A DNA stretch of 37,329 nucleotides. Origin: a virus. The notes under the pieces were generated by a model. The model was given only the letters and a program-made list of their open reading frames with translations. It was not told where the DNA came from and did no database searches. This document shows positions 637-37,160 of this stretch, in pieces; the first letter of the stretch is position 1; each line of letters begins with the position of its first letter. Both the position numbers and the translations under genes were made by a program. The stretch lies in the UHGV virus genome UHGV-0230703; one strand, 5' to 3'.

Positions 637-1788
637 TTGATGGCAATGATAAAACAATATAAAAAGAAAAATGGCGAAAAAGCATGGTACTTTAAAACTT
701 ATCTCGGTATTGATCCGCTAACAGGAAAGAAAAAATATACTACTAAACGAGGATTTAGAACACAAAAAGAAGCAAAAACAGCACTTTCTAGGTTAGAACT
801 AGAATTACAAAAAACAGGAATGCCCACAAGTACAAATACTACTTTCAAAGAAGCAGCAGAATTATGGCTAGAAAGCTACAAAAAAACTGTAAAAGAAAGT
901 TCATATTCAAGGACTAAAATAATCTTTAATAAACATATATATCCCAAATTTGGAAATATTAAGCTTTCTAAAATTAATACGGCATATTGTCAAAAGGTAG
1001 TAAATGATTGGAGTGAAAAAGGAACTTCAAAGCAGTACCCTCTTTTCATAAACTATATGAATAAAGTTTTTAAGTATGCTATAAATATTGGTTTAACATC
1101 TGATAATCCAACATTAAATTTACTTATTCCAAAGCCACAAATTAAAACAGAAAAGAAATTAAAATTATATACAAAAGAACAGTTGGAATTATTTCTAGAT
1201 GAAGTATCTCAAGAACAGAATCCATATTTTAAAAACAGAGACTATACGCTCTTTAGACTATTAGCATTCAGCGGATGTAGAATCGGCGAAATATTAGCAC
1301 TCACTTGGGACAATATTAATTTTAAAACAAATGAAATGGCCATTAAAAAAACTGTAGCTCGTTCAGATAAATACTATATATCTGAAACTCCTAAAACCAA
1401 AAAATCAAATCGAATAATTTATTTAGATGAAAAAACTATAAAGCAACTAAAATTTTGGAAGCTCGAACAAAGAAAGTACTTATTTCAATTAGGATTTACC
1501 AAAGCTAATTATTTGTTTACCAATGACGAAAATAATTTCACAATTAATCAGTCAGTGGCAGAAAGATACAATATATATCGTGAGCGTGCCGGCTTACCTT
1601 ATATCGGTCTGCATGGTTTTAGACATACACATGCATCAATGCTATATGAGGCAGGCGCAGATCACAAAGAAGTCCAAGAAAGAATGGGCCACGCAAATAT
1701 AAAAACTACTATGGACACATATACACACATTACTAACAGCAAAAAAGAAGAAACAACACAAAAACTAACAAATTATATTAACTTCTAA
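637..1788 (+). CDS. int: tyrosine-type site-specific integrase with AP2-like N-terminal arm-binding domain
   Basis: N-terminus KAWYFKTYLGIDPLTGKKKYTTKRGFRTQKEA (phage integrase arm-binding domain); catalytic signature R (GCRIGEILAL), HxxR (LHGFRHTHAS), Y (TMDTYTHI). Confidence 0.9.
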   Translation: MMAMIKQYKKKNGEKAWYFKTYLGIDPLTGKKKYTTKRGFRTQKEAKTALSRLELELQKTGMPTSTNTTFKEAAELWLESYKKTVKESSYSRTKIIFNKHIYPKFGNIKLSKINTAYCQKVVNDWSEKGTSKQYPLFINYMNKVFKYAINIGLTSDNPTLNLLIPKPQIKTEKKLKLYTKEQLELFLDEVSQEQNPYFKNRDYTLFRLLAFSGCRIGEILALTWDNINFKTNEMAIKKTVARSDKYYISETPKTKKSNRIIYLDEKTIKQLKFWKLEQRKYLFQLGFTKANYLFTNDENNFTINQSVAERYNIYRERAGLPYIGLHGFRHTHASMLYEAGADHKEVQERMGHANIKTTMDTYTHITNSKKEETTQKLTNYINF

Positions 1789-1791
1789 GAA

Positions 1792-1815
1792 AGTATGGTC
1801 AAAAGTATGGTCAAA
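1792..1815 (+). repeat. tandem direct repeat AGTATGGTCAAA x2 (putative integrase arm-type site)
   Basis: exact 12-bp period seen in sequence. Confidence 0.6.
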
Positions 1816-2018
1816 AAAAATCCCATAATTTACAAAAAAGCTCCATCCCTTGCCACACAAGAGATAGAGCAGTTTATTTATTAAGCTTCTTGAGCTACTG
1901 GATAAACAGACACTTCAATTATACTGTTTCCTGATAAGCTCTCAATTCTTCTGAACCCATGATGTTAGTGCTTTTCTTCTATTATTAAATATCTTGGAAT
2001 TTTCTATTCTTTCTAAAA

Positions 2019-2039
2019 AGTATGGTCAAAGTATGGTCA
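2019..2039 (+). repeat. tandem direct repeat AGTATGGTCA(A) x2, same orientation as 1792..1815 (putative arm-type site)
   Basis: AGTATGGTCAAAGTATGGTCA, 11-bp period; 215 bp from first pair. Confidence 0.6.
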
Positions 2040-2092
2040 CTATTGATAGAATGTTAATAGTAGTAGAAAGCTGATATCTAGGAGGAACTAAT

Positions 2093-2887
2093 GTGAGTAA
2101 ACAATGTGCAAAGTGCGGAGGTAAAATTGGCTTAACTTCATATAAAATCAAAGATAAACAAATTGTTTGCGGCAATTGTATGAAAAAAGCTGGTTACGGT
2201 ATGACTACTCCTTATAAAATAATAAGATCTTTGAATTTAGAAGATTTAGATAAGGATCCATCAGAAAAAAGAAAATTAAACATATCTGATCATACTGCAC
2301 ATAACAATCATGATATAGGTAATGATAGAATGAGAACCACTGAAGAGATGGTAGAATTTTGTCTTAAATACGGCTACGGTAAAGGAATGACTAAAAAATG
2401 GACAACTCATCATTTTAACTTAATATCAGATCAACTTAACAGTGACGAATACGTAATCTTCTGCTTTGTAGGATTGCATAATTATATCTCATCAACTAAG
2501 CATGACAATAATTATGCATACGCATTAACTAATAAACGTTTAATTGTAGCTCAACAAAAAATGATAGGCAATAATGTACAAAGTATTATATTAGACAATT
2601 TAAATAATATTAGTAAAAAAAGAGGAATGCTGTTGGGTACATTAACTATTGATACTCTTGGTAAAGTATTGAATGTTGCAGTTGATAAAGATACTGTTGA
2701 TAGGATAAGTGATTCTTTAAACGAAATTATTTATAATTTAAAAAGAAGAAATATTTCTGCTACAAATTCCAATACATCAACAATTTCCTCAGCTTCAGAA
2801 ATAAGAAAATATAAAGAACTATTGGATGATGGAATCATTACAGAAGAAGAATTTAATAAAAAGAAACAAGAATTATTAGATTTATAA
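2093..2887 (+). CDS. accessory protein: N-terminal CxxC..CxxC zinc ribbon, central bacterial PH-like domain, C-terminal SHOCT domain
   Basis: GTG start with RBS AGGAGG 7 nt upstream; MSKQCAKCGG...VCGNCMKK; ...ALTNKRLIVAQQKMIG... PH-like; C-terminus IRKYKELLDDGIITEEEFNKKKQELLDL matches the SHOCT consensus. Confidence 0.75.
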   Translation: MSKQCAKCGGKIGLTSYKIKDKQIVCGNCMKKAGYGMTTPYKIIRSLNLEDLDKDPSEKRKLNISDHTAHNNHDIGNDRMRTTEEMVEFCLKYGYGKGMTKKWTTHHFNLISDQLNSDEYVIFCFVGLHNYISSTKHDNNYAYALTNKRLIVAQQKMIGNNVQSIILDNLNNISKKRGMLLGTLTIDTLGKVLNVAVDKDTVDRISDSLNEIIYNLKRRNISATNSNTSTISSASEIRKYKELLDDGIITEEEFNKKKQELLDL

Positions 2888-2933
2888 TATCTATCAAAGA
2901 AGATGGGCATTTAATTTAGCTCATCTTTTTCTA

Positions 2934-2962
2934 TTTACAATACAAACATTTGTTCGTATACT
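2934..2962 (+). promoter_or_regulatory. sigma-A-like promoter TTTACA-17-TATACT for the 100-aa gene
   Basis: -35 TTTACA 2934..2939, 17-nt spacer, -10 TATACT 2957..2962, then RBS GAGGTGA and ATG 2982. Confidence 0.45.
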
Positions 2963-2981
2963 CTTTTTGAGGTGAACTTTT

Positions 2982-3284
2982 ATGCTGATGGAAGGAAAAA
3001 CACAATTATGGTTTAAATTTGATCCTTTGAATAGATTTATCAAAGATTTTTATAAAGTATGGGATTCAGAAGTTTTCTTTTTAGCAATCGAAGACAGTTT
3101 ATTAATCAATCTCTACTATTCTAATAAGAACTACTTTAAAATTCCTGCTGCGAAAACGAGAATGAAGAAGGATGTATACTTTTTATTTGATGTGGTGACT
3201 GACGTGCCGGACGCACGTAGCGATCATCGGCGTTATGACTATATAAAGTATACTTTCGTTGATCCAGAAAGGTATAAAGATTAA
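2982..3284 (+). CDS. hypothetical 100-aa protein, second gene of the plus-strand accessory cassette
   Basis: ATG with RBS GAGGTGA; own promoter upstream and hairpin terminator downstream. Confidence 0.7.
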   Translation: MLMEGKTQLWFKFDPLNRFIKDFYKVWDSEVFFLAIEDSLLINLYYSNKNYFKIPAAKTRMKKDVYFLFDVVTDVPDARSDHRRYDYIKYTFVDPERYKD

Positions 3285-3288
3285 AGTA

Positions 3289-3308
3289 GGCTACCTAAAA
3301 AGGTAGCC
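3289..3308 (+). terminator. hairpin GGCTACC-taaaaa-GGTAGCC after the accessory cassette
   Basis: perfect 7-bp inverted repeat 5 nt after the stop codon; U-tract weak (ttttat). Confidence 0.45.
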
Positions 3309-3513
3309 CGGAACGGATTTTATCACCATACTTATGAAAGGAGATATTTTTAAGTTAGTATTAAGATTGTGTAATATGATGATATCTATATTTTATAGTA
3401 TCAGTGCTATAAAATCAAAAATAAGTCACTAATTAACTATCACTCCAATTATAAGTCTTTTTTCCATTATTTTTTACAGTTATATGGTATGCTTTTTAAT
3501 GGCTTCAAATATA

Positions 3514-3575
3514 AAAGAGTTTAAAGCGTAACACACTTATTGGGGAGTGGTTTTTGGGGAACGCTTTAAACTCTT
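3514..3575. other. long hairpin: 15-bp perfect stem (AAGAGTTTAAAGCGT / ACGCTTTAAACTCTT) enclosing a 31-nt G-rich loop containing TTTTTGGGGAA
   Basis: seen directly; no coding potential; a related element is at 4059..4116. Confidence 0.5.
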
Positions 3576-3698
3576 CTTTATTATTATCTCACAATATAAC
3601 TCAAATGTCTTTCTATTTAAAAATCAAAGTAAAACTTTTCAAATATACAGAAGTATAACTATGTGAAACATCCTTTCATTAATCCATAAAAGGATACA

Positions 3699-3723
3699 TA
3701 AAAAAGCCACTCATTTGAGTGGC
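3699..3723 (-). terminator. rho-independent terminator downstream of the tRNA-like gene
   Basis: stem GCCACTCA/TGAGTGGC followed on the minus strand by TTTTTT. Confidence 0.6.
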
Positions 3724-3798
3724 AATGAAGAAAAGCTTTAGCTTGTATAATACTCTTCAAAAAATTCTAACACAGAACAATTCAATTGGCTACGTTAA

Positions 3799-3872
3799 TG
3801 TACCCTGTAGGACTCGAGCCTACGACCGGACGGTTATGAGCCGTCTGCTCTAACCAACTGAGCTAAGGGTAT
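3799..3872 (-). tRNA. tRNA-like gene, anticodon CAT (Met, or Ile via lysidine), with non-canonical A1/C72 and C54
   Basis: minus-strand cloverleaf ATACCCT-TA-GCTC-AGTTGGTTA-GAGC-A-GACGG-CTCATAA-CCGTC-CGGTC-GTAGG-CTCGAGT-CCTAC-AGGGTAC-A; D arm and anticodon arm canonical; CCA not encoded; followed by terminator 3699..3723. Confidence 0.5.
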
Positions 3873-4058
3873 GGAAAGCCACCACAACTCCTGCAAACAA
3901 AAAGAATGGACCTGAGAAAAGATAAATTATTTTTTTCATTCTTTACGTTGCGGTGGCATCTTTATTATTACATATTTAATAGCAAAAAACTAGATTGTAC
4001 TTATTCTTTGTAAAATATATTATTTTATGCTATTATTTCCAAGTCATAAAAAGAAAAA

Positions 4059-4116
4059 AGCTTCAGATACTTATCTTTTTGGGGAAAGACTCTAGGGTGA
4101 GGGAGTATCTGAAGCT
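4059..4116. other. long hairpin: 12-bp perfect stem (AGCTTCAGATAC / GTATCTGAAGCT) with 34-nt loop containing TTTTTGGGGAA, A-run before and T-run after
   Basis: seen directly; shares loop motif and architecture with 3514..3575. Confidence 0.5.
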
Positions 4117-4260
4117 TTTTTCTATGTTTATTATCTCACATAGTTATTTTTTAGTCTATTATTTGCTTAATTTTTTATATTATAATAATTTTATTTGATC
4201 CTTAATTAGTAACGAACTACTCTAAATTGCTAGCAATAATTACGGTATCTAGCTTAAAAT

Positions 4261-4286
4261 AAAAAAACACCTCAAATGAGGTGTTT
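4261..4286 (-). terminator. rho-independent terminator of csp
   Basis: stem AACACCTC/GAGGTGTT followed on the minus strand by a 7-T run, 12 nt after the csp stop. Confidence 0.65.
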
Positions 4287-4297
4287 AAAGTTCAACA

Positions 4298-4495
4298 TTA
4301 TTTTACAATATTTACTGCTTGAGGGCCACGTTGACCTTCTTCAATATCATAAGTAACTGCTTGGCCTTCATCTAAAGACTTGAAGCCTTCTCCCTGGATC
4401 GCTGAGAAATGTGCAAATACGTCATTTCCATCTTCTCCAGTGATAAATCCAAAACCTTTGTCTGAGTTAAACCATTTTACTGTACCGTTATTCAT
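4298..4495 (-). CDS. csp: cold-shock protein, CspA family (65 aa)
   Basis: [18 protein letters not shown]...DVFAHFSAI contains RNP1 (KGFGFI) and RNP2 (VFAHF) motifs; RBS GGAGGA. Confidence 0.95.
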
Positions 4496-4710
4496 ATATA
4501 TTTCCTCCTAATACGTATATAATACGTGTTTTGTTGCAATTAATATTACTTTGTAAAAGGAGTTTTTATAGTGTGAATATATCGCTCAGATTACGTTTCA
4601 AATTAGATTACTTATTTACTATAACATGGATGTAATGCTAACACAAGGATAAATATTCAATATGCGGTTTAATACAAAGAAGTAGGGTTAACATTTAAAA
4701 GAGTTAATAG

Positions 4711-4857
4711 CAGAACAAAAAAAGTTGTCAATATATAAAGCGAACCTATTTAGCTCATCGCAGCACTGCTCGTGGTTTTATTAGAAACAAGGCTACTCTT
4801 GAGGATTTGGAAGAATTAAAGAAGCTAATTGAAGAAAGAGAAAAATCCCTCACCTAA
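4711..4857 (+). pseudogene. start-less 48-codon ORF, apparent 3' gene remnant (…YLAHRSTARGFIRNKATLEDLEELKKLIEEREKSLT*) ending at the bidirectional terminator
   Basis: open frame bounded upstream by TAA/TAG with no ATG/GTG/TTG start until near its end; C-terminus-like sequence. Confidence 0.3.
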
Positions 4858-4876
4858 TATTGTAGTGAGGGATTTT
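4842..4876. terminator. bidirectional rho-independent terminator (AAAATCCCTCAC / GTGAGGGATTTT) between the membrane-protein gene and the csp region
   Basis: 12-bp perfect stem with an 11-nt loop; T-runs follow on both strands. Confidence 0.65.
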
Positions 4877-4883
4877 TTGTATG

Positions 4884-6254
4884 CTATCTGTTCATAACCG
4901 TTAATATCAAGGTACAAATACCTAGCATGGTTAACCCAAATTGCAACAATTCTTTTTTTTGTACACTCATACTTTTCATTAGCTCTTTAACTCCCATTAG
5001 TACTAAGATGGTAATAACAACGTAAAGTATATAGTACGTTCGCATTCCTGAAGCCCAGACCGTGGGAGAAAATCCCATAATTAATCTTGAGCAAAATCCC
5101 ATTATCATCAAAATAACTAAGAAAGTAGCAGTTCTTTTATTGTCAAAACTTAAATAAATTCCAACAACTAAACATAGTAACAACCCCAAAACTGCTAAAG
5201 TGGCTATCCAGGTACCAGGATAAAAAAGTGACAGTTTCGTTCCTCCCTCTGTAAAGAGATTATTCAGGTTACTACTACTCCAAATCATTGCTCTTTTATT
5301 TCCATGAACATAAGTAAAACTTTGTCCCATTGTATTGCCAAAATAAATAATCAAATTTAAGAAAAACGGCAATGCAGTCAATATACGTACATAGTAGTTT
5401 TGACATTTCCTATATGTTAAAAGGAATACTAGGAAAAATAGCAATAAAAATAAAATATTCGTGTCTAAAAAAAATGGCTTTCCAAATGATGAAATACCTA
5501 AGTCTAGCTTATTAAGAAAGTTGAAATCTTTATATTCAGGAAACCATTTATTAATTTCATGCGTAGCACGTAATGCATTCCCTGGAGTTGTCAAAGAGAA
5601 AATCAATTCTGCTAAACTTATTAGTGAAAATACTGATAACTTATAATTGTATCGCCTATTAGCAATCAAATACAGACTAACTATGCTTGTTAGAACAAAA
5701 AAACAGGAGTTGACTTGTTCTTGATTAGTTGAAAATATCAACAGAGGAATACTTACCCAATATATTTTTCTAGTTATTTCTCCCCCTCTTAAAAGTTGGA
5801 AAAACGGATAAAAGGCTAGTAAACTAAACGCTACTGGCCACTGATAGTTTAATGTAGTTGCTCTCCAACCCGTTTCCCCCATTACTGTTAATGGTATTAA
5901 ACAGTATATAGAACAAACTAATAACAAATTTTTAACATTTGTTTTCTCAAAAACATATTTGCAGAGTAATACTACAGTCCCTAACATAATCGTAGAATTT
6001 AATATTTTCCATAGCATAAAGTGTTTAGAAAAAAACATTAAGAATAGTTCCACAATAATTCTTGAACTCCATGTTTTGTAATGTTCTATCGAAGCACCCA
6101 AATAGCCAAGTTTATCTAATCTACTTGCGTAAGCTAAATCATCTGCTCTAATAGTCGGCATATACATATTAAAGAGCAAAAAGACAACCCAAATCCCTAA
6201 TAGCATCACGATCAGTTCTTTATTGTACATTATTTTTCTATTATGTTTGTTCAT
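4884..6254 (-). CDS. polytopic (about 12 TM) membrane protein with GT-C-like features; lysogenic-conversion / surface-glycosylation candidate
   Basis: start moved to ATG 6254 (RBS AAGGAG 8 nt upstream) from the track's TTG 6281; many hydrophobic helices; acidic RADDLAY motif in the first loop as in GT-C glycosyltransferases. Confidence 0.8.
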   Translation of the reverse strand: MNKHNRKIMYNKELIVMLLGIWVVFLLFNMYMPTIRADDLAYASRLDKLGYLGASIEHYKTWSSRIIVELFLMFFSKHFMLWKILNSTIMLGTVVLLCKYVFEKTNVKNLLLVCSIYCLIPLTVMGETGWRATTLNYQWPVAFSLLAFYPFFQLLRGGEITRKIYWVSIPLLIFSTNQEQVNSCFFVLTSIVSLYLIANRRYNYKLSVFSLISLAELIFSLTTPGNALRATHEINKWFPEYKDFNFLNKLDLGISSFGKPFFLDTNILFLLLFFLVFLLTYRKCQNYYVRILTALPFFLNLIIYFGNTMGQSFTYVHGNKRAMIWSSSNLNNLFTEGGTKLSLFYPGTWIATLAVLGLLLCLVVGIYLSFDNKRTATFLVILMIMGFCSRLIMGFSPTVWASGMRTYYILYVVITILVLMGVKELMKSMSVQKKELLQFGLTMLGICTLILTVMNR

Positions 6255-6352
6255 TTTTATACTCCTTATTATATTTCCCAATAGAGTATAACATAGCTTT
6301 AAGCGTTACTTAAAGATAACTTTTAAGTTATTTTTTAAATACTTGTATGTAT

Positions 6353-27296: not shown

Positions 27297-27470
27297 TTAG
27301 AAGTCCTTCTCTTCAGTCGCATTTAGATCATTGTAAATAGCCTTTGCTGTCTCTAATCCGACCCGCAGTCTTCGTTGAATGACTCCAACAGTTAGCTCCA
27401 TATCAACTTCTTCATAGTCCTTCTTTAGTTGCTTCATTTCCTCGAAATCTTTAGTAGTATATTGTTTCAT
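27297..27470 (-). CDS. FtsK-gamma-like winged-helix small protein (57 aa), below the track cutoff
   Basis: MKQYTTKDFEEMKQLKKDYEEVDMELTVGVIQRRLRVGLETAKAIYNDLNATEEKDF; GV.QRRLR.G...A..I matches the FtsK gamma motif; RBS AAAGGAG. Confidence 0.55.
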   Translation of the reverse strand: MKQYTTKDFEEMKQLKKDYEEVDMELTVGVIQRRLRVGLETAKAIYNDLNATEEKDF

Positions 27471-27492
27471 ATAATTATTCTCCTTTTAAATA

Positions 27493-27521
27493 AAATAAAA
27501 AGACCACTCAACGAGTGATCC
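27493..27521 (-). terminator. rho-independent terminator (GGATCACTC-gttg-GAGTGGTC + TTTTTATTTT)
   Basis: minus strand; 8-bp stem with one mismatch, then a T-run. Confidence 0.5.
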
Positions 27522-28752: not shown

Positions 28753-29097
28753 TTGTTATTTGTAATATGTTTATGTCTTTCTGTTTACTTGATGAATCTT
28801 GAATATAAAGAATATGGAAAACTTGTTCCTGGCTCAGCTGTTACTAATAAAACAAGTACACTAAAAGTCTTTCTTCTAATTGTTCAAAGAGTTGCAACAG
28901 TAGGAGTAATCTCGTATTTATATCCTTTCTTTGACCAATTTAATAATATCTTTTTAGATTTAGTAGATTTTATACTTTTAATTGTTATGTCATATTTTGG
29001 TATAAAAGCTCTTTTTCTTTTGACTCTTTTTTTATTGCGGCTCCTATCTAAAATAGGAAAAACCTTTTTAGATGATGATCATAAACCGTATGAATAA
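28753..29097 (+). CDS. small 3-TM membrane protein on the opposite strand to the early operon (moron / exclusion candidate)
   Basis: TTG 28753 with RBS GAGGAG 9 nt upstream; three hydrophobic helices; own plus-strand terminator. Confidence 0.5.
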   Translation: MLFVICLCLSVYLMNLEYKEYGKLVPGSAVTNKTSTLKVFLLIVQRVATVGVISYLYPFFDQFNNIFLDLVDFILLIVMSYFGIKALFLLTLFLLRLLSKIGKTFLDDDHKPYE

Positions 29098-31047: not shown

Positions 31048-31353
31048 CTAGCATTTTTTCTCCTCCACATACCTAAACTGTCGTCCTTTTGAATCAATCC
31101 ATAAGCTCCTAGCTCTGTCCCAGATAATGTTTTTGCTTAATCCAGTAATTTCAGATAACTGTTCAGCGGTACCCGTTACTAGAATACGGTCACCATGCCA
31201 GATTGCGATTTTTCTCGGCGTTCTCCGTTTGGTTTTTTCAGTCCACATTGATTTACCGAGCTTTTGGACTTCTGCAACTATTTCTTTGTCTTCTTGCCAA
31301 TTCTCAGAATATGTCAGTTCAATGATTCGTTTCATTGCCGCTTTCTTATCCAC
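31048..31353 (-). CDS. HTH (sigma region-4-like) protein, paralog A of a tandem pair
   Basis: GTG start with RBS GGAGGAA; about 60 percent identity to 31514..31816 (MDKKAAM.RIIELTYSE.W...RKIAIWHGD..LVTGTAEQL). Confidence 0.7.
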   Translation of the reverse strand: MDKKAAMKRIIELTYSENWQEDKEIVAEVQKLGKSMWTEKTKRRTPRKIAIWHGDRILVTGTAEQLSEITGLSKNIIWDRARSLWIDSKGRQFRYVEEKKC

Positions 31354-31355
31354 GT

Positions 31356-31517
31356 TTATTCCTCCAATCTACGAATTTCCCTTCTTAAATTCTCTATGTG
31401 CAAATCGATTGCCTTTCTCGCCGTTTCATTGACCATCACTGCCTTTGTTCGTTCTAGATCGTCAATTTCACGCTGAATGTTTCGAATACGCATTTGAATC
31501 ACTTCTTCTGTTGTCAT
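31356..31517 (-). CDS. 53-aa coiled-coil small protein between the paralogs, translationally coupled (ATGA overlap with upstream stop)
   Basis: MTTEEVIQMRIRNIQREIDDLERTKAVMVNETARKAIDLHIENLRREIRRLEE; RBS GGAGGA; below the track cutoff. Confidence 0.5.
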   Translation of the reverse strand: MTTEEVIQMRIRNIQREIDDLERTKAVMVNETARKAIDLHIENLRREIRRLEE

Positions 31518-31816
31518 GATGATTCCTCCACGTATCTAAACGTTCTCTTCTTAACGTCTGTGTATCCACACCTAGCTCTTTTTCTCACGATTTTCTCGTG
31601 CAAGCCTGTGAGACTTGCTAACTGTTCAGCTGTCCCTGTCACTAGAAGTTTGTCACCGTGCCAAATTGCGATTTTTCGTGGTCTTGGCTTGTTGCTCTTG
31701 TCTGCCCACATCGCTCTTCCAAGCCTCATCACTTCTGAAGCAGTTTCTTTTTCATTTTGCCAATCTTCTGAATAAGTCAATTCGATAATTCGCTGCATTG
31801 CCGCTTTCTTATCCAT
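31514..31816 (-). CDS. HTH (sigma region-4-like) protein, paralog B
   Basis: ATG with RBS AAAGGAGAA; paralogous to 31048..31353 also at DNA level. Confidence 0.7.
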   Translation of the reverse strand: MDKKAAMQRIIELTYSEDWQNEKETASEVMRLGRAMWADKSNKPRPRKIAIWHGDKLLVTGTAEQLASLTGLHEKIVRKRARCGYTDVKKRTFRYVEESS

Positions 31817-32259: not shown

Positions 32260-33006
32260 TTAGAATGGTGCTTTTGATTGTCTATTAGCTCGTTCTAGCG
32301 CTTTTTTCTTAAGATAGGCTTCTTGGTCGATTGCCCATTCAGGAAGCTTCTCTCGTCTTCCTGTGCGCTTGTATCCACTGCTTGCGTTCTTAGGTTCACT
32401 TTTTTCTTTCCTTGCCCAACTTCGAATAGTTGCCAAATAGTTTTTATAAGTCTTACCAGATGATTCACAATACTCAGATAGCCGTTCTATTCGCTCTTGG
32501 TAATCATTAGGGAATTCTGTTTTGAGTTTCTCCATCTGCTCATCTGACAAAAGAACATTTTTATACTCTCCGTATTTATGACGGATGGGCTTAGCCTTCG
32601 ATTTTTTCGAAGGCGGTAACTCTCTTATATATTCTTTTGTATTATTAAATGTATTATTAATAGATGTATTATTATCTTGATAGATTTCTTGGTGACCCCT
32701 CACCAAATTTTCTTGGCGACCCCCACCAAGAATTCTTATATACCTAGCCTCGATTTCTTTACTACCCTCTTTGTACTTAACTTCTCTATAGATATAGCCC
32801 TTTTCTTCAAGTGACTTTAGCCAATTCTGAATGGTTGGTTTGCTTACTTTATATTGATTGGCAAAGTACTCATTGCTAGCCCAGCAATAACCTTTCTCAT
32901 TACATAGAGCTGTGATTTCTCCATAAAGAAGTTTTGCACTAGGTATCAAAGAATCGTCATATCTAACATTTGCAGGTATGATGGCGTAATAACTTCTGTG
33001 ATCCAC
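32260..33006 (-). CDS. replisome organiser / DnaD-like replication initiation protein
   Basis: N-terminal winged-helix (AIIPANVRYDDSLIPSAKLLYGEITALCNEKGYCWASNEYFANQY), C-terminal YKNYLATIRSWARKE DnaD-like segment; ori-like repeats in the linker. Confidence 0.75.
   Translation of the reverse strand: MDHRSYYAIIPANVRYDDSLIPSAKLLYGEITALCNEKGYCWASNEYFANQYKVSKPTIQNWLKSLEEKGYIYREVKYKEGSKEIEARYIRILGGGRQENLVRGHQEIYQDNNTSINNTFNNTKEYIRELPPSKKSKAKPIRHKYGEYKNVLLSDEQMEKLKTEFPNDYQERIERLSEYCESSGKTYKNYLATIRSWARKEKSEPKNASSGYKRTGRREKLPEWAIDQEAYLKKKALERANRQSKAPF
32638..32730. repeat. candidate origin of replication inside the replication gene: TGTATTATTA x3 iterons plus two copies of a palindromic TCTTGGTGACCCCTCACCAA-like unit
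   Basis: iterons at about 32638, 32650, 32665; TTGGTGA-cccc-TCACCAA perfect palindrome and TTGGCGACCCCCACCAAG. Confidence 0.55.
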
Positions 33007-33009
33007 TTT

Positions 33010-33696
33010 TTATCCTCCGATTCTTAATTTCTTGATTGTCTCCTGATTTAACTTGATCCCTTTGATTTGATACTTATTTTTGAAATTGATCACACCTATC
33101 TTGTGCTTCTCTGTGTGATGGATTCTGCAGAGTGCTGCAAATGTGTACTCTGAATGATTAACTTCTTTGCGCTTTCGTCTTCCCAGCGCTTTGTCAAAGT
33201 GATCGATATCAGCTCCTGTTTTGCCACAGATGCAACAGACTCTTTTTGTAATGCATTTGTAGAAGTAATATTCTTGATTCGCTGGTAAAATCTCATAACC
33301 TTCTTTGAAAGGAATATGGTGTTCAAAGATGAAATCTAAGATGATATTTGCTAAGACGTTAGCATCACTCACAGTCGTATTCGATTCATCTTTGAGGCTT
33401 ATTTTGCGCCCTGTGACACCTTCAAAACGGAAGTAGAAGAATTCCTTCCAGAAGTCCGTTGGCATGCCTGTATCGATGAAAATATCGCCTATGAGCGCAT
33501 AGATGAAGTTTCGTTGCTGTGCGGTGAACCGACGTGGATCAATAAAACGAATTTCAATGATTCGATCGCCATCATAGCCGTCATACATCGTTTTCAGCCG
33601 TTCGATATTTACTTCTTCGTTGATTGTTGCACCAATGTCGTTACCTTTAAATTTCTTTAGTACCGCCGAGTATGAATCTATTAGTGGTTTAAACAC
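33010..33696 (-). CDS. protein with C-terminal HNH-nuclease-like motif
   Basis: CCICGK...DIDH...N...LCRIHHTEKH. Confidence 0.65.
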   Translation of the reverse strand: MFKPLIDSYSAVLKKFKGNDIGATINEEVNIERLKTMYDGYDGDRIIEIRFIDPRRFTAQQRNFIYALIGDIFIDTGMPTDFWKEFFYFRFEGVTGRKISLKDESNTTVSDANVLANIILDFIFEHHIPFKEGYEILPANQEYYFYKCITKRVCCICGKTGADIDHFDKALGRRKRKEVNHSEYTFAALCRIHHTEKHKIGVINFKNKYQIKGIKLNQETIKKLRIGG

Positions 33697-33701
33697 TCAT
33701 A

Positions 33702-34448
33702 TCACTTCTCTTTTGTTTCTTCTCTGTACTGATCTTCAAGCCAATTAACGCCTCGTTTTAGAATGCCCAAGTCTCTCTTGGTCCATTTACTGTCATCAGC
33801 GGTTATAGAAGCCGCATCAGTCAATGCAACAATTGCTTCATCAATTGATTTTTCGTACTTGTTAGCAACCAGTTGTAAAGCATCCAAGAATAGCTTTTTG
33901 CTTCTTTGAGTAGCTGGTTCAAGCATCGAGACATCTTCTGGCATATCTTCGCCAGCAAATATATATAGCCCTAGCCCAAACATTGCTAGATTTTTTACAA
34001 GACAGCGCATGATCGTTTTGTTGATATCAAACATAGTTGCTGCTTCAACTCGCTTTTCGATTTTTCCAACAATCTCTTTTTTCTTCGTTTCGTTATTCCA
34101 CTGATAATCATTGACTTCGTAGGTATATGGCTCATCTTTCATTGCCTTGTTTGCACCATCCATGACTGGTAACCACATGTCACGCTTTACTCCGTTGACT
34201 GTGATACTGGTAAAAACCATATAGCCTGTTTTTTCATCAAAGAGGTATGGACGATGCGTTTCTGGATCACGATAGATTTCATAATCTACTGCCTCACACA
34301 CTTTGCTAACTTCTGCCCAAGCCCATGCCCACGAAAGATAAGTGAGGTTATTTCGTTTTTCAGTAACACCTTTCACATTTATTTTGTATAAGCTATTAAA
34401 AAGCGTATTATCACTTCTATTTTTCAAAGGTTGTTCCTTTTCACTCAT
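33702..34448 (-). CDS. sak: Sak-type single-strand annealing protein (RAD52-like, DUF1071)
   Basis: LTYLSWAWAWAEVSK signature; start trimmed to ATG 34448 (RBS GGAGG, 9-nt spacer). Confidence 0.8.
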   Translation of the reverse strand: MSEKEQPLKNRSDNTLFNSLYKINVKGVTEKRNNLTYLSWAWAWAEVSKVCEAVDYEIYRDPETHRPYLFDEKTGYMVFTSITVNGVKRDMWLPVMDGANKAMKDEPYTYEVNDYQWNNETKKKEIVGKIEKRVEAATMFDINKTIMRCLVKNLAMFGLGLYIFAGEDMPEDVSMLEPATQRSKKLFLDALQLVANKYEKSIDEAIVALTDAASITADDSKWTKRDLGILKRGVNWLEDQYREETKEK

Positions 34449-34782
34449 CAAATTCTGCCTCCATTTCAGCGATGTATTTTTTGCCTTGTCCGTAATAAGA
34501 GATATCAATCAAGTTATCCCTTTCGTACTCTTCGAGCGCATCAATCAAGCCATCTTCGGCGACATAAATATATTCAGGTTTATTCGAATGTTTCGATAGA
34601 TGGATAAGGTAAACATGATCCCAAATACTCACAAAGTTTCCCAAGTCATCTTGATCACATGCTAGTTCTTCATTTGTCAAAAGATTTCGTCTGATTTTTC
34701 GGTTGTTTGTTTCCTTACTATTCGATTTGCCCCAATCAGGATCGGCCAAATATTGATCTAGAGTGGAAAGTTCATTTTCCAT
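34441..34782 (-). CDS. hypothetical acidic 113-aa protein upstream of sak
   Basis: ORF; stop overlaps the sak start. Confidence 0.6.
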   Translation of the reverse strand: MENELSTLDQYLADPDWGKSNSKETNNRKIRRNLLTNEELACDQDDLGNFVSIWDHVYLIHLSKHSNKPEYIYVAEDGLIDALEEYERDNLIDISYYGQGKKYIAEMEAEFDE

Positions 34783-36727: not shown

Positions 36728-36756
36728 ATATTATTATAAAGTTTTGTAGATGTCAA
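36728..36756 (-). promoter_or_regulatory. leftward consensus promoter TTGACA-17-TAATAT with TTTGTAGA / TCTACAAA half-sites around it
   Basis: minus strand; faces the rightward promoter, so the transcripts would overlap by about 150 nt. Confidence 0.5.
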
Positions 36757-36812
36757 CGATTATCTACAAAGTTTTTAAGATATGTTTTAGGCATGATCGG
36801 AGAATCATTATT

Positions 36813-37160
36813 ATGACAACATTTGAGAGAGTAAAAATGTTAGCAGATAAACGCAAAATATCTATTGTCGAATTGGAAGAAAAACTTAATTTTAGTAAAA
36901 ATTCACTTTACGCGTGGAAAAAAAGTAAGCCATCCATTGATAAACTAAATGCAGTTGCTGACTATTTTAATGTCTCAACTGATTATTTGTTAGGACGCAC
37001 AGATGATCCCGACATAGGAGTTGCACCAGAGGAAAGAAAACTAACCGTGGAAGAAGCTTTAGCATCTGTTATGAGTAGCGACGGAAAACCGCTCACCGAT
37101 AATGATAGGGAAATACTATCAGCTATGATTGAAGCATATTTAGAGAAAAAAGATAACTAA
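36813..37160 (+). CDS. XRE-family lysogeny repressor (ImmR/CI-like) without an S24 autopeptidase domain
   Basis: start trimmed to ATG 36813 (RBS GGAGAA); HTH ISIVELEEKLNFSKNSLYAWKKSK; followed by immA. Confidence 0.85.
   Translation: MTTFERVKMLADKRKISIVELEEKLNFSKNSLYAWKKSKPSIDKLNAVADYFNVSTDYLLGRTDDPDIGVAPEERKLTVEEALASVMSSDGKPLTDNDREILSAMIEAYLEKKDN

Follow-up and report, generated by a model that had tools for sequence, protein, structure and literature searches.

The DNA analysed here, referred to below as the window, is a stretch of 37,329 bases from an Enterococcus temperate siphophage or prophage; vB_ElaS_B1578 and 4995_1, both Enterococcus phages, are its closest records. On the minus strand lie the early and late genes of the window. 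The genes that matter for this analysis are the following:

637-1788, plus strand: integrase gene
32260..33006, minus strand: rep gene, a 248-aa ORF for a replication initiator, containing the origin candidate
33010..33696, minus strand: HNHc_6 putative nuclease gene (Pfam PF16784, E 1e-31)
33702..34508, minus strand: gene for a Sak-family single-strand annealing protein (Pfam SSAP_Sak, E 2e-45; PHROG 659)
36750-37160, plus strand: cI-like repressor gene

The Sak gene belongs to the replication and recombination module and is located upstream of rep in the operon, while the HNHc_6 gene stands directly upstream of rep in the same operon. Adjacency to HNHc_6 was considered as a rule of the family and rejected, as it is present in only 7 of 75 loci. 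A preliminary description of this DNA had stated that the replication module has no helicase or loader of its own, which holds for the early-region ORFs scanned against Pfam and PHROGs, a set comprising all but a few ORFs shorter than 70 aa: no helicase, loader or SSB is recognisable among them. The ORFs downstream of rep (89, 54, 100, 53 and 101 aa) include no helicase loader of the P or DnaC type. Since no helicase-loader gene is adjacent, the module has the 'initiator-solo' arrangement of P335-group phages, as in TP901-1 and Tuc2009.

The protein encoded by rep matches HTH_36 at aa 22-72 (E 4e-16, 58.9 bits for a cutoff of 25) and falls into PHROGs 19658/270, 'replication initiation protein', and 678, 'replication initiation O-like'. 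RepA_N (PF06970), Bac_RepA_C and Phage_rep_org_N (PF09681) are all absent from its Pfam matches. Its parts are encoded as follows:

32731..33006, minus strand: N-terminal winged-helix DNA-binding domain, aa 1-92
32578..32718, minus strand: disordered inter-domain linker, aa 97-143, overlapping the cis elements
32263..32577, minus strand: C-terminal domain, with the conserved core RHKYGEYKNVLLSD...YKNYLATIRSWARK

Modelling with AlphaFold2 on a 50-sequence alignment predicted a winged helix with confidence (pLDDT 80-92) at aa 6-95; its topology is H-H-H-beta-hairpin, the recognition helix spanning aa 56-68 and the wing aa 72-92. Foldseek searches with this domain recovered regulators with a winged helix and, at E ~0.02, RepA_N plasmid initiators, matched in their N-terminal domains, with 4pql, 4pt7 and 5kbj among the neighbours. 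Weak tblastn matches also link it to the O proteins of Stx phages (34% over aa 22-79, E 1e-4). The pLDDT drops below 50 at aa 97-143, which identifies this segment as a linker. The C-domain is modelled as a small helical domain with helices at 155-202 and 223-244. It matched nothing in Pfam up to E 10, DnaB_2 included, and PDB sequence searches with the protein or its profile found nothing related. Presumably, it serves as a host-replisome recruitment module.

The preliminary description had called this protein DnaD-like, a name supported by PHROG family names only. As the C-domain has no DnaB_2 match, the name is a label rather than a tested membership. Moreover, alignment of the C-domain profile with the DnaB_2 region of TP901-1 ORF13 by hhalign gave a non-significant probability of 0.9%, and assignment to the DnaD-like proteins (DnaB_2, PF07261) is not supported. 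Judged by its domain matches, the protein belongs to the HTH_36/O-like initiators, its C-domain being uncharacterised.

The cis elements lie where the N-terminal domain gives way to the linker:

32709..32732, no strand assigned: iteron unit 1, promoter-proximal in the gene, with the dyad TTGGCG-ACCCC-CACCAA at 32713-32729
32685..32708, no strand assigned: iteron unit 2, with the perfect dyad TTGGTGA-CCCC-TCACCAA at 32689-32706
32638..32674, no strand assigned: three AT-rich boxes TGTATTATT(A), starting at 32638, 32650 and 32665; on the coding strand AATAATACA, encoding Asn-Asn-Thr
32626..32685, no strand assigned: least stable 60-bp duplex of the whole window (nearest-neighbour dG, rank 1)
32594..32614, no strand assigned: perfect 8-bp inverted repeat GCCTTCGA-AAAAA-TCGAAGGC, where homology among four N-domain classes begins

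The dyad units and AT boxes together encode aa 93-123, with the two dyad units accounting for aa 93-108, and the cis elements thus sit in DNA coding for the disordered linker. Their placement in the linker of the 248-aa ORF is as the preliminary description had it, and so are their basic layouts. The TGTATTATTA repeats are exact on the plus strand at all three box starts, with spacings of 12 and 15. The 37,329 bases contain only one further exact copy, and three copies within 37 bp are therefore not due to chance. Both palindromes are capable of forming hairpins: TTGGTGACCCCTCACCAA at 32689-32706 is a perfect 7-bp dyad with a 4-nt spacer, and TTGGCGACCCCCACCAA at 32713-32729 is a dyad with one arm mismatch. 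In single-stranded folding, both strands form both hairpins (z -4.7 to -5.9; 0-1 of 200 shuffles as good).

The two units are in-frame 24-bp direct repeats sharing the general dyad TTGGTG-N5/6-CACCAA. The mismatch in unit 1 is a private A>G change (coding strand) at 32717 that breaks one arm; this arm is intact in 13 of 13 other loci of the window's subtype, and the N-domain DNA of the window is otherwise identical (0 of 276 positions different) to that of the loci L027, L029, L030 and L036. One relative, L085, has a single dyad unit. Neither dyad was found elsewhere in the window with up to 2 mismatches, and a second origin or operator copy within it was rejected on that basis.

The boxes fall within the least stable 60-bp duplex, whose dG is -57.1 kcal/mol where the window averages -74.1 kcal/mol (z 3.7). 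Other very AT-rich stretches are located at 28937-28996 and 27444-27503. The inverted repeat at 32594-32614 may have arisen by chance; as a selected element it was rejected for want of support, its variants breaking the pairing without compensation.

Comparison with relatives, using a set of 160 related loci, indicates what has been conserved in this segment. Codon usage was counted in 73 non-redundant genes, at the linker positions and at two invariant control residues of the same proteins:

Box Thr: ACA 141/141
Box Asn: AAT 250/250
Thr of the 'TP' encoded by the dyads: ACC 41/41
Dyad Pro: CCT 76/78
Control, invariant Thr of LLYGEIT: ACA 36, ACT 18, ACG 11, ACC 8
Control, invariant Pro of IPA: CCT 27, CCG 20, CCA 15, CCC 9

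The control codons are scrambled and the linker codons fixed, meaning that synonymous sites are saturated elsewhere in these genes and frozen in the linker. Across the genes compared, this usage shows selection acting on the linker DNA and not on the peptide. The arms of the dyads also change in concert. Cognate arm pairs among homologues include TTTAATA/TATTAAA, TTCCATA/TATGGAA, CGTCAATA/TATTGACG, TGGGCATA/TATGCCCA and TTGGTGA/TCACCAA, and in the peptide this pairing leaves its trace as reverse-complement codon pairs (N/I, H/M, F/K and V/D). Covariation was counted in 45 distinct units with a CCCC spacer, which are phylogenetically related and in which G-T was scored as a pair. In these related units, pairing cells amounted to 72.2%; shuffles gave 60.3% (0/500), and sliding the partner column gave no more than 43.5%. 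Double-sided changes occupied 49 cells for 19 expected (0/500), and the covariation score was 0.284 versus 0.127 in shuffles. A separate count of arm pairing restricted to Watson-Crick pairs agrees.

The sites also co-vary with the protein. Subtypes A1 and A2 are separated by four residue differences in aa 1-92 (20/276 nt), of which K53G, S55G and P57S are located in the turn and first turn of the recognition helix and K83R in the tip of the wing. The sites of the two subtypes differ in a single symmetric base pair, which is changed in each arm of each unit (TTGGTG/CACCAA to TGGGTG/CACCCA), a switch that costs the peptide Q>P and L>W. Two further lineages repeat this pairing of helix and site independently: the E. 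casseliflavus locus L165 combines an 'SKPT' helix with TTGGTG/CACCAA, and L166 combines a 'GKST' helix with TGGGTGA-CCCC-TCACCCA. In each of these two lineages, the spacer flips its polarity between a G-run and a C-run, changing the peptide from RG to TP and leaving the dyad in place. Across genera, the arm sequence goes with the motif of the recognition helix:

Helix 'KETISRW': arms CAATA/TATTG
Helix 'SKVSISKW': arms TTTAATA/TATTAAA
Helix 'KKSISKW': arms TTCCATA/TATGGAA
Helix 'SKRTISTW': arms TTCGTGA/TCACGAA

Such covariation of helix and arm is the pattern expected if the N-domain binds the dyads of its own gene, and from it we infer that Rep does so.

Relatives further reveal that N-domain and repeats are exchanged together. 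In an alignment of rep from the window, B1578 and 4995_1, the 3' halves are near-identical and the 5' halves unrelated, and each of these three Enterococcus phage genes carries its own repeat set exactly at the junction. Among 80 IMG/VR viral contigs encoding the same C-domain at 93% identity or more, this domain is joined to four N-domain classes, each with its own repeats:

Class A: N-domain of the window type, HTH_36; junction repeats TTGGTG..CACCAA dyads
Class B: HTH_36, 64% identical to class A over aa 1-92; TCAATA-CCC-TATTGA twice
Class C: Phage_rep_org_N; GGACAAATGTC three times plus 18-bp repeats
Class D: Tuc2009-Rep-like; GGTATACC twice plus 15-bp repeats

Phage 4995_1 is a class C relative, with a Phage_rep_org_N N-domain and the C-domain it has in common with the window protein. 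Class D shares an RLGKD peptide repeat with Tuc2009 Rep. The C-domain was also found joined to DUF6291 N-domains. Conversely, the N-domain family is large (952 proteins from one search) and was surveyed in 80 loci from one-genome-per-species contigs covering Enterococcus, Bacillaceae, Clostridia and Lactobacillaceae. Most of these loci have the same layout, with a winged helix, 1-4 units of ~24 nt, a 'DNNTxxNNTxNNT' box and variable C-domains. The window itself displays the layout of HTH_36 (PF13730) Bacillota initiators, namely HTH_36, 1-4 dyad units and AATAnTACA boxes.

This comparison reassigns the parts played by the two kinds of repeats. The TGTATTATTA copies had been described as the iterons; the roles are in fact reversed, because these boxes are unchanged across initiator specificities and the palindromic units vary with specificity. 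Classes A and B have the same AT boxes though their dyads differ, and the specificity-linked elements are thus the palindromic units and not TGTATTATTA. By this comparison, the TGTATTATTA repeats are a common AT box independent of specificity, and the two palindromic units are probably the initiator-binding iterons. By analogy with lambda, SPP1 and pSK41, the TGTATTATT boxes likely represent a DNA-unwinding element next to the initiator sites. The box is conserved as AATAnTACA, and the ACT codon, which also ends in A/T, is never used. Such strict invariance exceeds the needs of a passive unwinding element, for which AT-richness alone would be an insufficient explanation, and part of the mechanism is therefore missing from this account. 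A reading of the boxes as DnaA boxes was rejected, because by inspection only 3 of 9 positions agree with the consensus TTATCCACA, and a literature search for the motif strings returned nothing relevant. We tentatively raise the possibility that AATAnTACA is a sequence-specific core motif that thousands of Bacillota prophage origins with HTH_36-family initiators have in common, read either by a second DNA-contact surface of the initiator or by a universal host replisome factor. The basis for this suggestion is the 141 of 141 usage of ACA across genera whose dyad arms and C-domains differ. If the reader were a second surface of the initiator, it would be conserved and act on double- or single-stranded DNA. 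If the core-motif reading were true, the dyads spaced by C- or G-runs and their recognition helices would constitute a natural 'recognition code' on a large scale, made up of cognate protein-site pairs.

We consider it quite likely that positions 32626-32732 are the phage origin of theta replication, lambda-like and embedded in the linker-coding part of the initiator gene. The constraint on DNA, the compensatory changes of the arms, the co-variation with the recognition helix and the adjoining stability minimum all support this reading, and from these comparative data we infer origin activity. The intragenic origin proposed in the preliminary description thus gains strong comparative support, and what needs correcting is the roles of its repeats and the DnaD-like name. 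Several features of a lambda-type intragenic origin are present: a two-domain initiator, intragenic dyad repeats at the inter-domain junction, sites that co-vary with N-domain specificity and an easily melted AT tract adjoining them. What is lacking is an adjacent helicase-loader gene of the lambda P or DnaC type.

The gene order suggests that the early leftward operon would express Sak, HNHc_6 and Rep. The N-terminal winged helix of Rep would bind the two TTGGTG-N5/6-CACCAA sites, 24 bp apart, probably as dimers, as their co-evolution suggests. The resulting nucleoprotein complex would open the adjoining AT stretch with its three TGTATTATT boxes, by analogy with the melting attributed to lambda O, SPP1 gp38 and pSK41 Rep. 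The C-domain would then recruit the helicase-loading or priming machinery of the host, given that no helicase, loader or SSB can be recognised among the phage's own genes. Later, Sak may support the switch to concatemer synthesis, by analogy with 80alpha.

Other readings of the same elements have to be weighed against an origin. The dyads could be an autoregulatory operator or a transcriptional roadblock by which Rep limits its own or downstream expression, with replication starting elsewhere. Co-variation indeed points to binding by the N-domain and not to the consequence of binding, and according to Foldseek the winged-helix proteins of this fold are mostly regulators; the window also contains the other very AT-rich stretches mentioned above. 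Those stretches carry no copy of the dyad, however, and the fixed order of dyads and then an invariant AT box persists across the family ahead of many different C-domains and matches that of proven origins. An operator would not need the adjoining stability minimum, and the PHROG families name the protein a replication initiator. We therefore regard this reading as unlikely. A role mainly as a recombination junction for shuffling initiator modules, the repeats being kept as promoters of exchange and the true origin lying elsewhere, would account for the homology breakpoints between classes at the AT box or the 32594-32614 palindrome, and for the truncated or rearranged variants P0087, P0091 and P0105, which break inside the box. 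Mosaic junctions are equally expected if the origin-binding domain and the origin form one cassette, as in the pPR9 swap, and shuffling leaves both the compensatory changes of the dyad arms and their match to the recognition helix unexplained, making this a very unlikely account.

Being in frame and coding for a disordered segment, the repeats could in principle be a mere low-complexity peptide linker (LGGGxQEN twice, NNT three times) without function at the DNA level. This is already contradicted by the codon, arm-pairing and A1/A2 site-switch data: synonymous codons are fixed here and scrambled elsewhere in the same genes, residue pairs obey reverse-complement codons, and the DNA dyad persists through drastic changes of the peptide (Q>P, L>W, RG>TP), which leaves such an explanation barely credible. 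The hairpins could instead act in RNA, as a plus-strand (antisense) terminator formed by 32689-32706 and the following ATTTTCTT, or as an mRNA structure regulating rep translation. A consensus scan does flag one terminator-like site on the plus strand at 32689-32706; one hit is nevertheless the average in shuffles (mean 1.0), and the stems are AT-rich in most relatives (TTTAATA and others), making them poor terminators. The flips of spacer polarity between units and between relatives favour a double-stranded dyad over a strand-specific RNA, and Rfam returned nothing at E up to 1. An action in RNA appears extremely improbable.

Viewed as an origin, the element locates the probable start of replication of this phage and identifies the repeats that its initiator reads. 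The rule 'winged-helix domain, C-run-spaced dyads, AATAnTACA boxes' can serve as a sequence-only origin finder for a large family of Bacillota prophages, with a range extending over Enterococcus, Staphylococcus, Lactobacillaceae, Bacillus and Clostridia. Origin-binding domain and origin appear to travel as one cassette ahead of interchangeable host-recruitment domains, and the mobility of this cassette bears on phage incompatibility, on origin-in-trans ('Per'-type) resistance and on the building of Enterococcus vectors. Finally, the many cognate pairs of helix and dyad are a ready dataset on winged-helix specificity.

Several systems have established origins within their initiator genes, and the element in the window is accordingly of an already known kind. 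In lambda and Stx phages, iterons and an AT tract lie in the middle of the O gene (PMC7466680). As in these O genes, the origin candidate of the window is placed mid-gene, with dyad iterons that would be bound by the N-terminal domain, an AT tract next to them and a C-terminal part for recruitment of the host replisome (PMC7466680). Unlike lambda, the window has 2 sites instead of 4-6 and no P-type loader gene follows; its C-domain is unrelated, its AT tract is a repeated 9-mer of invariant sequence, and its hosts are Gram-positive. In Bacillus phage SPP1, oriL is located in gene 38 and comprises direct repeats as well as an AT-rich unwinding element (PMC6316719). The window resembles SPP1 and Tuc2009 in having its candidate origin within the replisome-organiser gene, and the class C and D relatives from Enterococcus carry those N-domain types on the C-domain of the window. 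It departs from SPP1 in that its N-domain is HTH_36 and not Phage_rep_org_N, and in that SPP1 encodes its own loader and helicase; Tuc2009, for its part, has a Rep_Org_C C-domain.

According to PMC8965321, ORF13 of Lactococcus phage TP901-1 and Rep2009 of Tuc2009 each bind repeats in the gene that encodes them, and phage resistance results from cloning these origins. ORF13 is a replication protein defined by experiment, and its intragenic sites are direct repeats. ORF13 reaches 24.5 bits for HTH_36, just under the 25-bit cutoff, and also has a DnaB_2 domain. The DNA of its linker contains TTTTCCAGATGTGG twice, followed by an AT-rich stretch, and, as in the window, both TP901-1 and Tuc2009 have the Sak-to-Rep gene order with no helicase or loader. 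In contrast, TP901-1 possesses an SSB gene and a DnaB_2 (DnaD-type) C-domain, and its repeats are direct, whereas those of the window are dyads around a C-run; BLASTP found no similarity between the window protein and ORF13. In 80alpha, the origin was inferred to lie within ORF20 (PMC5499656).

Staphylococcal plasmids provide another parallel. The winged-helix N-terminal domain of pSK41 Rep binds boxes located centrally in rep that code for a dispensable linker, and its C-terminal domain is genus-specific and contacts host DnaG (PMC5703833). The pPR9 chimera, into which a PF13730 (HTH_36) N-domain was swapped together with the origin, replicates (PMC5703833). A protein search for chimeric Rep of the pPR9 type returned only C-terminal fragments; pUSA03 and CP030400 carry ordinary RepA_N genes, and the pUSA03 gene contains 4 copies of GTGTC-AAAAG-GACAC followed by AT-rich repeats. 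The N-domain of the window protein resembles those of RepA_N initiators in structure only, as noted above, and its context is that of a phage and not of a plasmid. With a layout known from lambda, lactococcal phages and staphylococcal plasmids, the element is well supported but ordinary, and an origin at this place is what a specialist would expect; the grammar of the repeats across the family, the natural switch of specificity and the strict invariance of the boxes nonetheless add some value.

At window position 32717, within iteron unit 1, the window carries a private A>G substitution (coding strand) that replaces a histidine by an arginine and disrupts one arm of the dyad. This arm is intact in 13 of the 13 other loci of the same N-domain subtype (A1), and apart from 32717 the N-domain DNA of the window is identical to that of four related loci (L027, L029, L030 and L036). 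The substitution could have weakened the site, or could stem from a sequencing error.

Many relatives are frameshifted where the dyads carry G/C homopolymers, or show truncations and rearrangements whose breakpoints fall within the AT box (loci L039, L125, L139, L143 and L162; proteins P0007, P0079, P0087, P0091 and P0105), so that the origin region resembles a hotspot of slippage and recombination, or else a site of assembly errors. The Rep proteins of some relatives, P0006 (146 aa) and P0005 (175 aa), end shortly past the AT box and lack the C-domain (short Rep loci L165 1501-1941 and L166 1501-2028). In L166, the short Rep is found together with Sak, DUF1351 and HNHc_6, adjoining an integrase. 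Degenerate prophages, satellites and split initiators are possible explanations for relatives of this kind.

At 32594-32614 the window carries a perfect inverted repeat with 8-bp arms, GCCTTCGA-AAAAA-TCGAAGGC, which coincides with the exact start point of homology among all four N-domain classes. Variants in L035, L080-82 and L072/L079 disrupt this repeat, and no compensating change accompanies them; hence it bears no sign of selection. The repeat may mark the junction at which modules are exchanged, or may have arisen by chance.

Other features of the window, both around rep and in the lysogeny and cargo region (637-6281), are as follows.

637-1788, integrase, lysogeny/cargo region
2093-2887, bPH_3/SHOCT/DUF4428 protein, lysogeny/cargo region
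2982-3284, DUF5960 protein, lysogeny/cargo region
~3300-4200, very AT-rich, mostly ORF-poor stretch that includes the least stable 40-mer of the window
4884-6281, minus strand, DUF6056 membrane protein, lysogeny/cargo region
31048-31353 and 31514-31816, minus strand, pair of ORFs (~100 aa each) paralogous to one another, phrog_5224 (unknown function)
33010-33696, putative HNHc_6 nuclease gene, directly upstream of rep

The phrog_5224 paralogs, located shortly downstream of rep on either side of a 53-aa ORF, look like a tandem duplication. An HNHc_6 gene also lies directly 5' of such rep genes in several phages of Enterococcus, Latilactobacillus and Staphylococcus (L165, L166; phage matches H6 and H34). 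Adjacency to HNHc_6 was rejected as a rule of the family, since phmmer detected the gene at no more than 7 of the 75 genome loci.

Records named 'Acinetobacter phage D2SVT' and 'Listeria phage LM 4-x' (matches H1, H4 and H5) share 92-95% identity with the Enterococcus phage of the window, and the C-domain of its Rep also occurs in partial proteins attributed to S. aureus and Vibrio parahaemolyticus (P0126 and P0134). The host labels of all these records look like the product of contamination or mislabelling.

The origin grammar of the window rep is the same as that of the RepA_N gene of plasmid pUSA03 (L167 500-640). The latter contains four boxes of 22-23 bp, each with the dyad GTGTC-AAAAG-GACAC, followed by AT-rich TACTGATTTTATTGA repeats, all within the central linker-coding section of the gene. 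Whereas a review lists pUSA03 as a pPR9-type hybrid (PMC5703833), the gene in the L167 record scores as an ordinary RepA_N + Bac_RepA_C protein.
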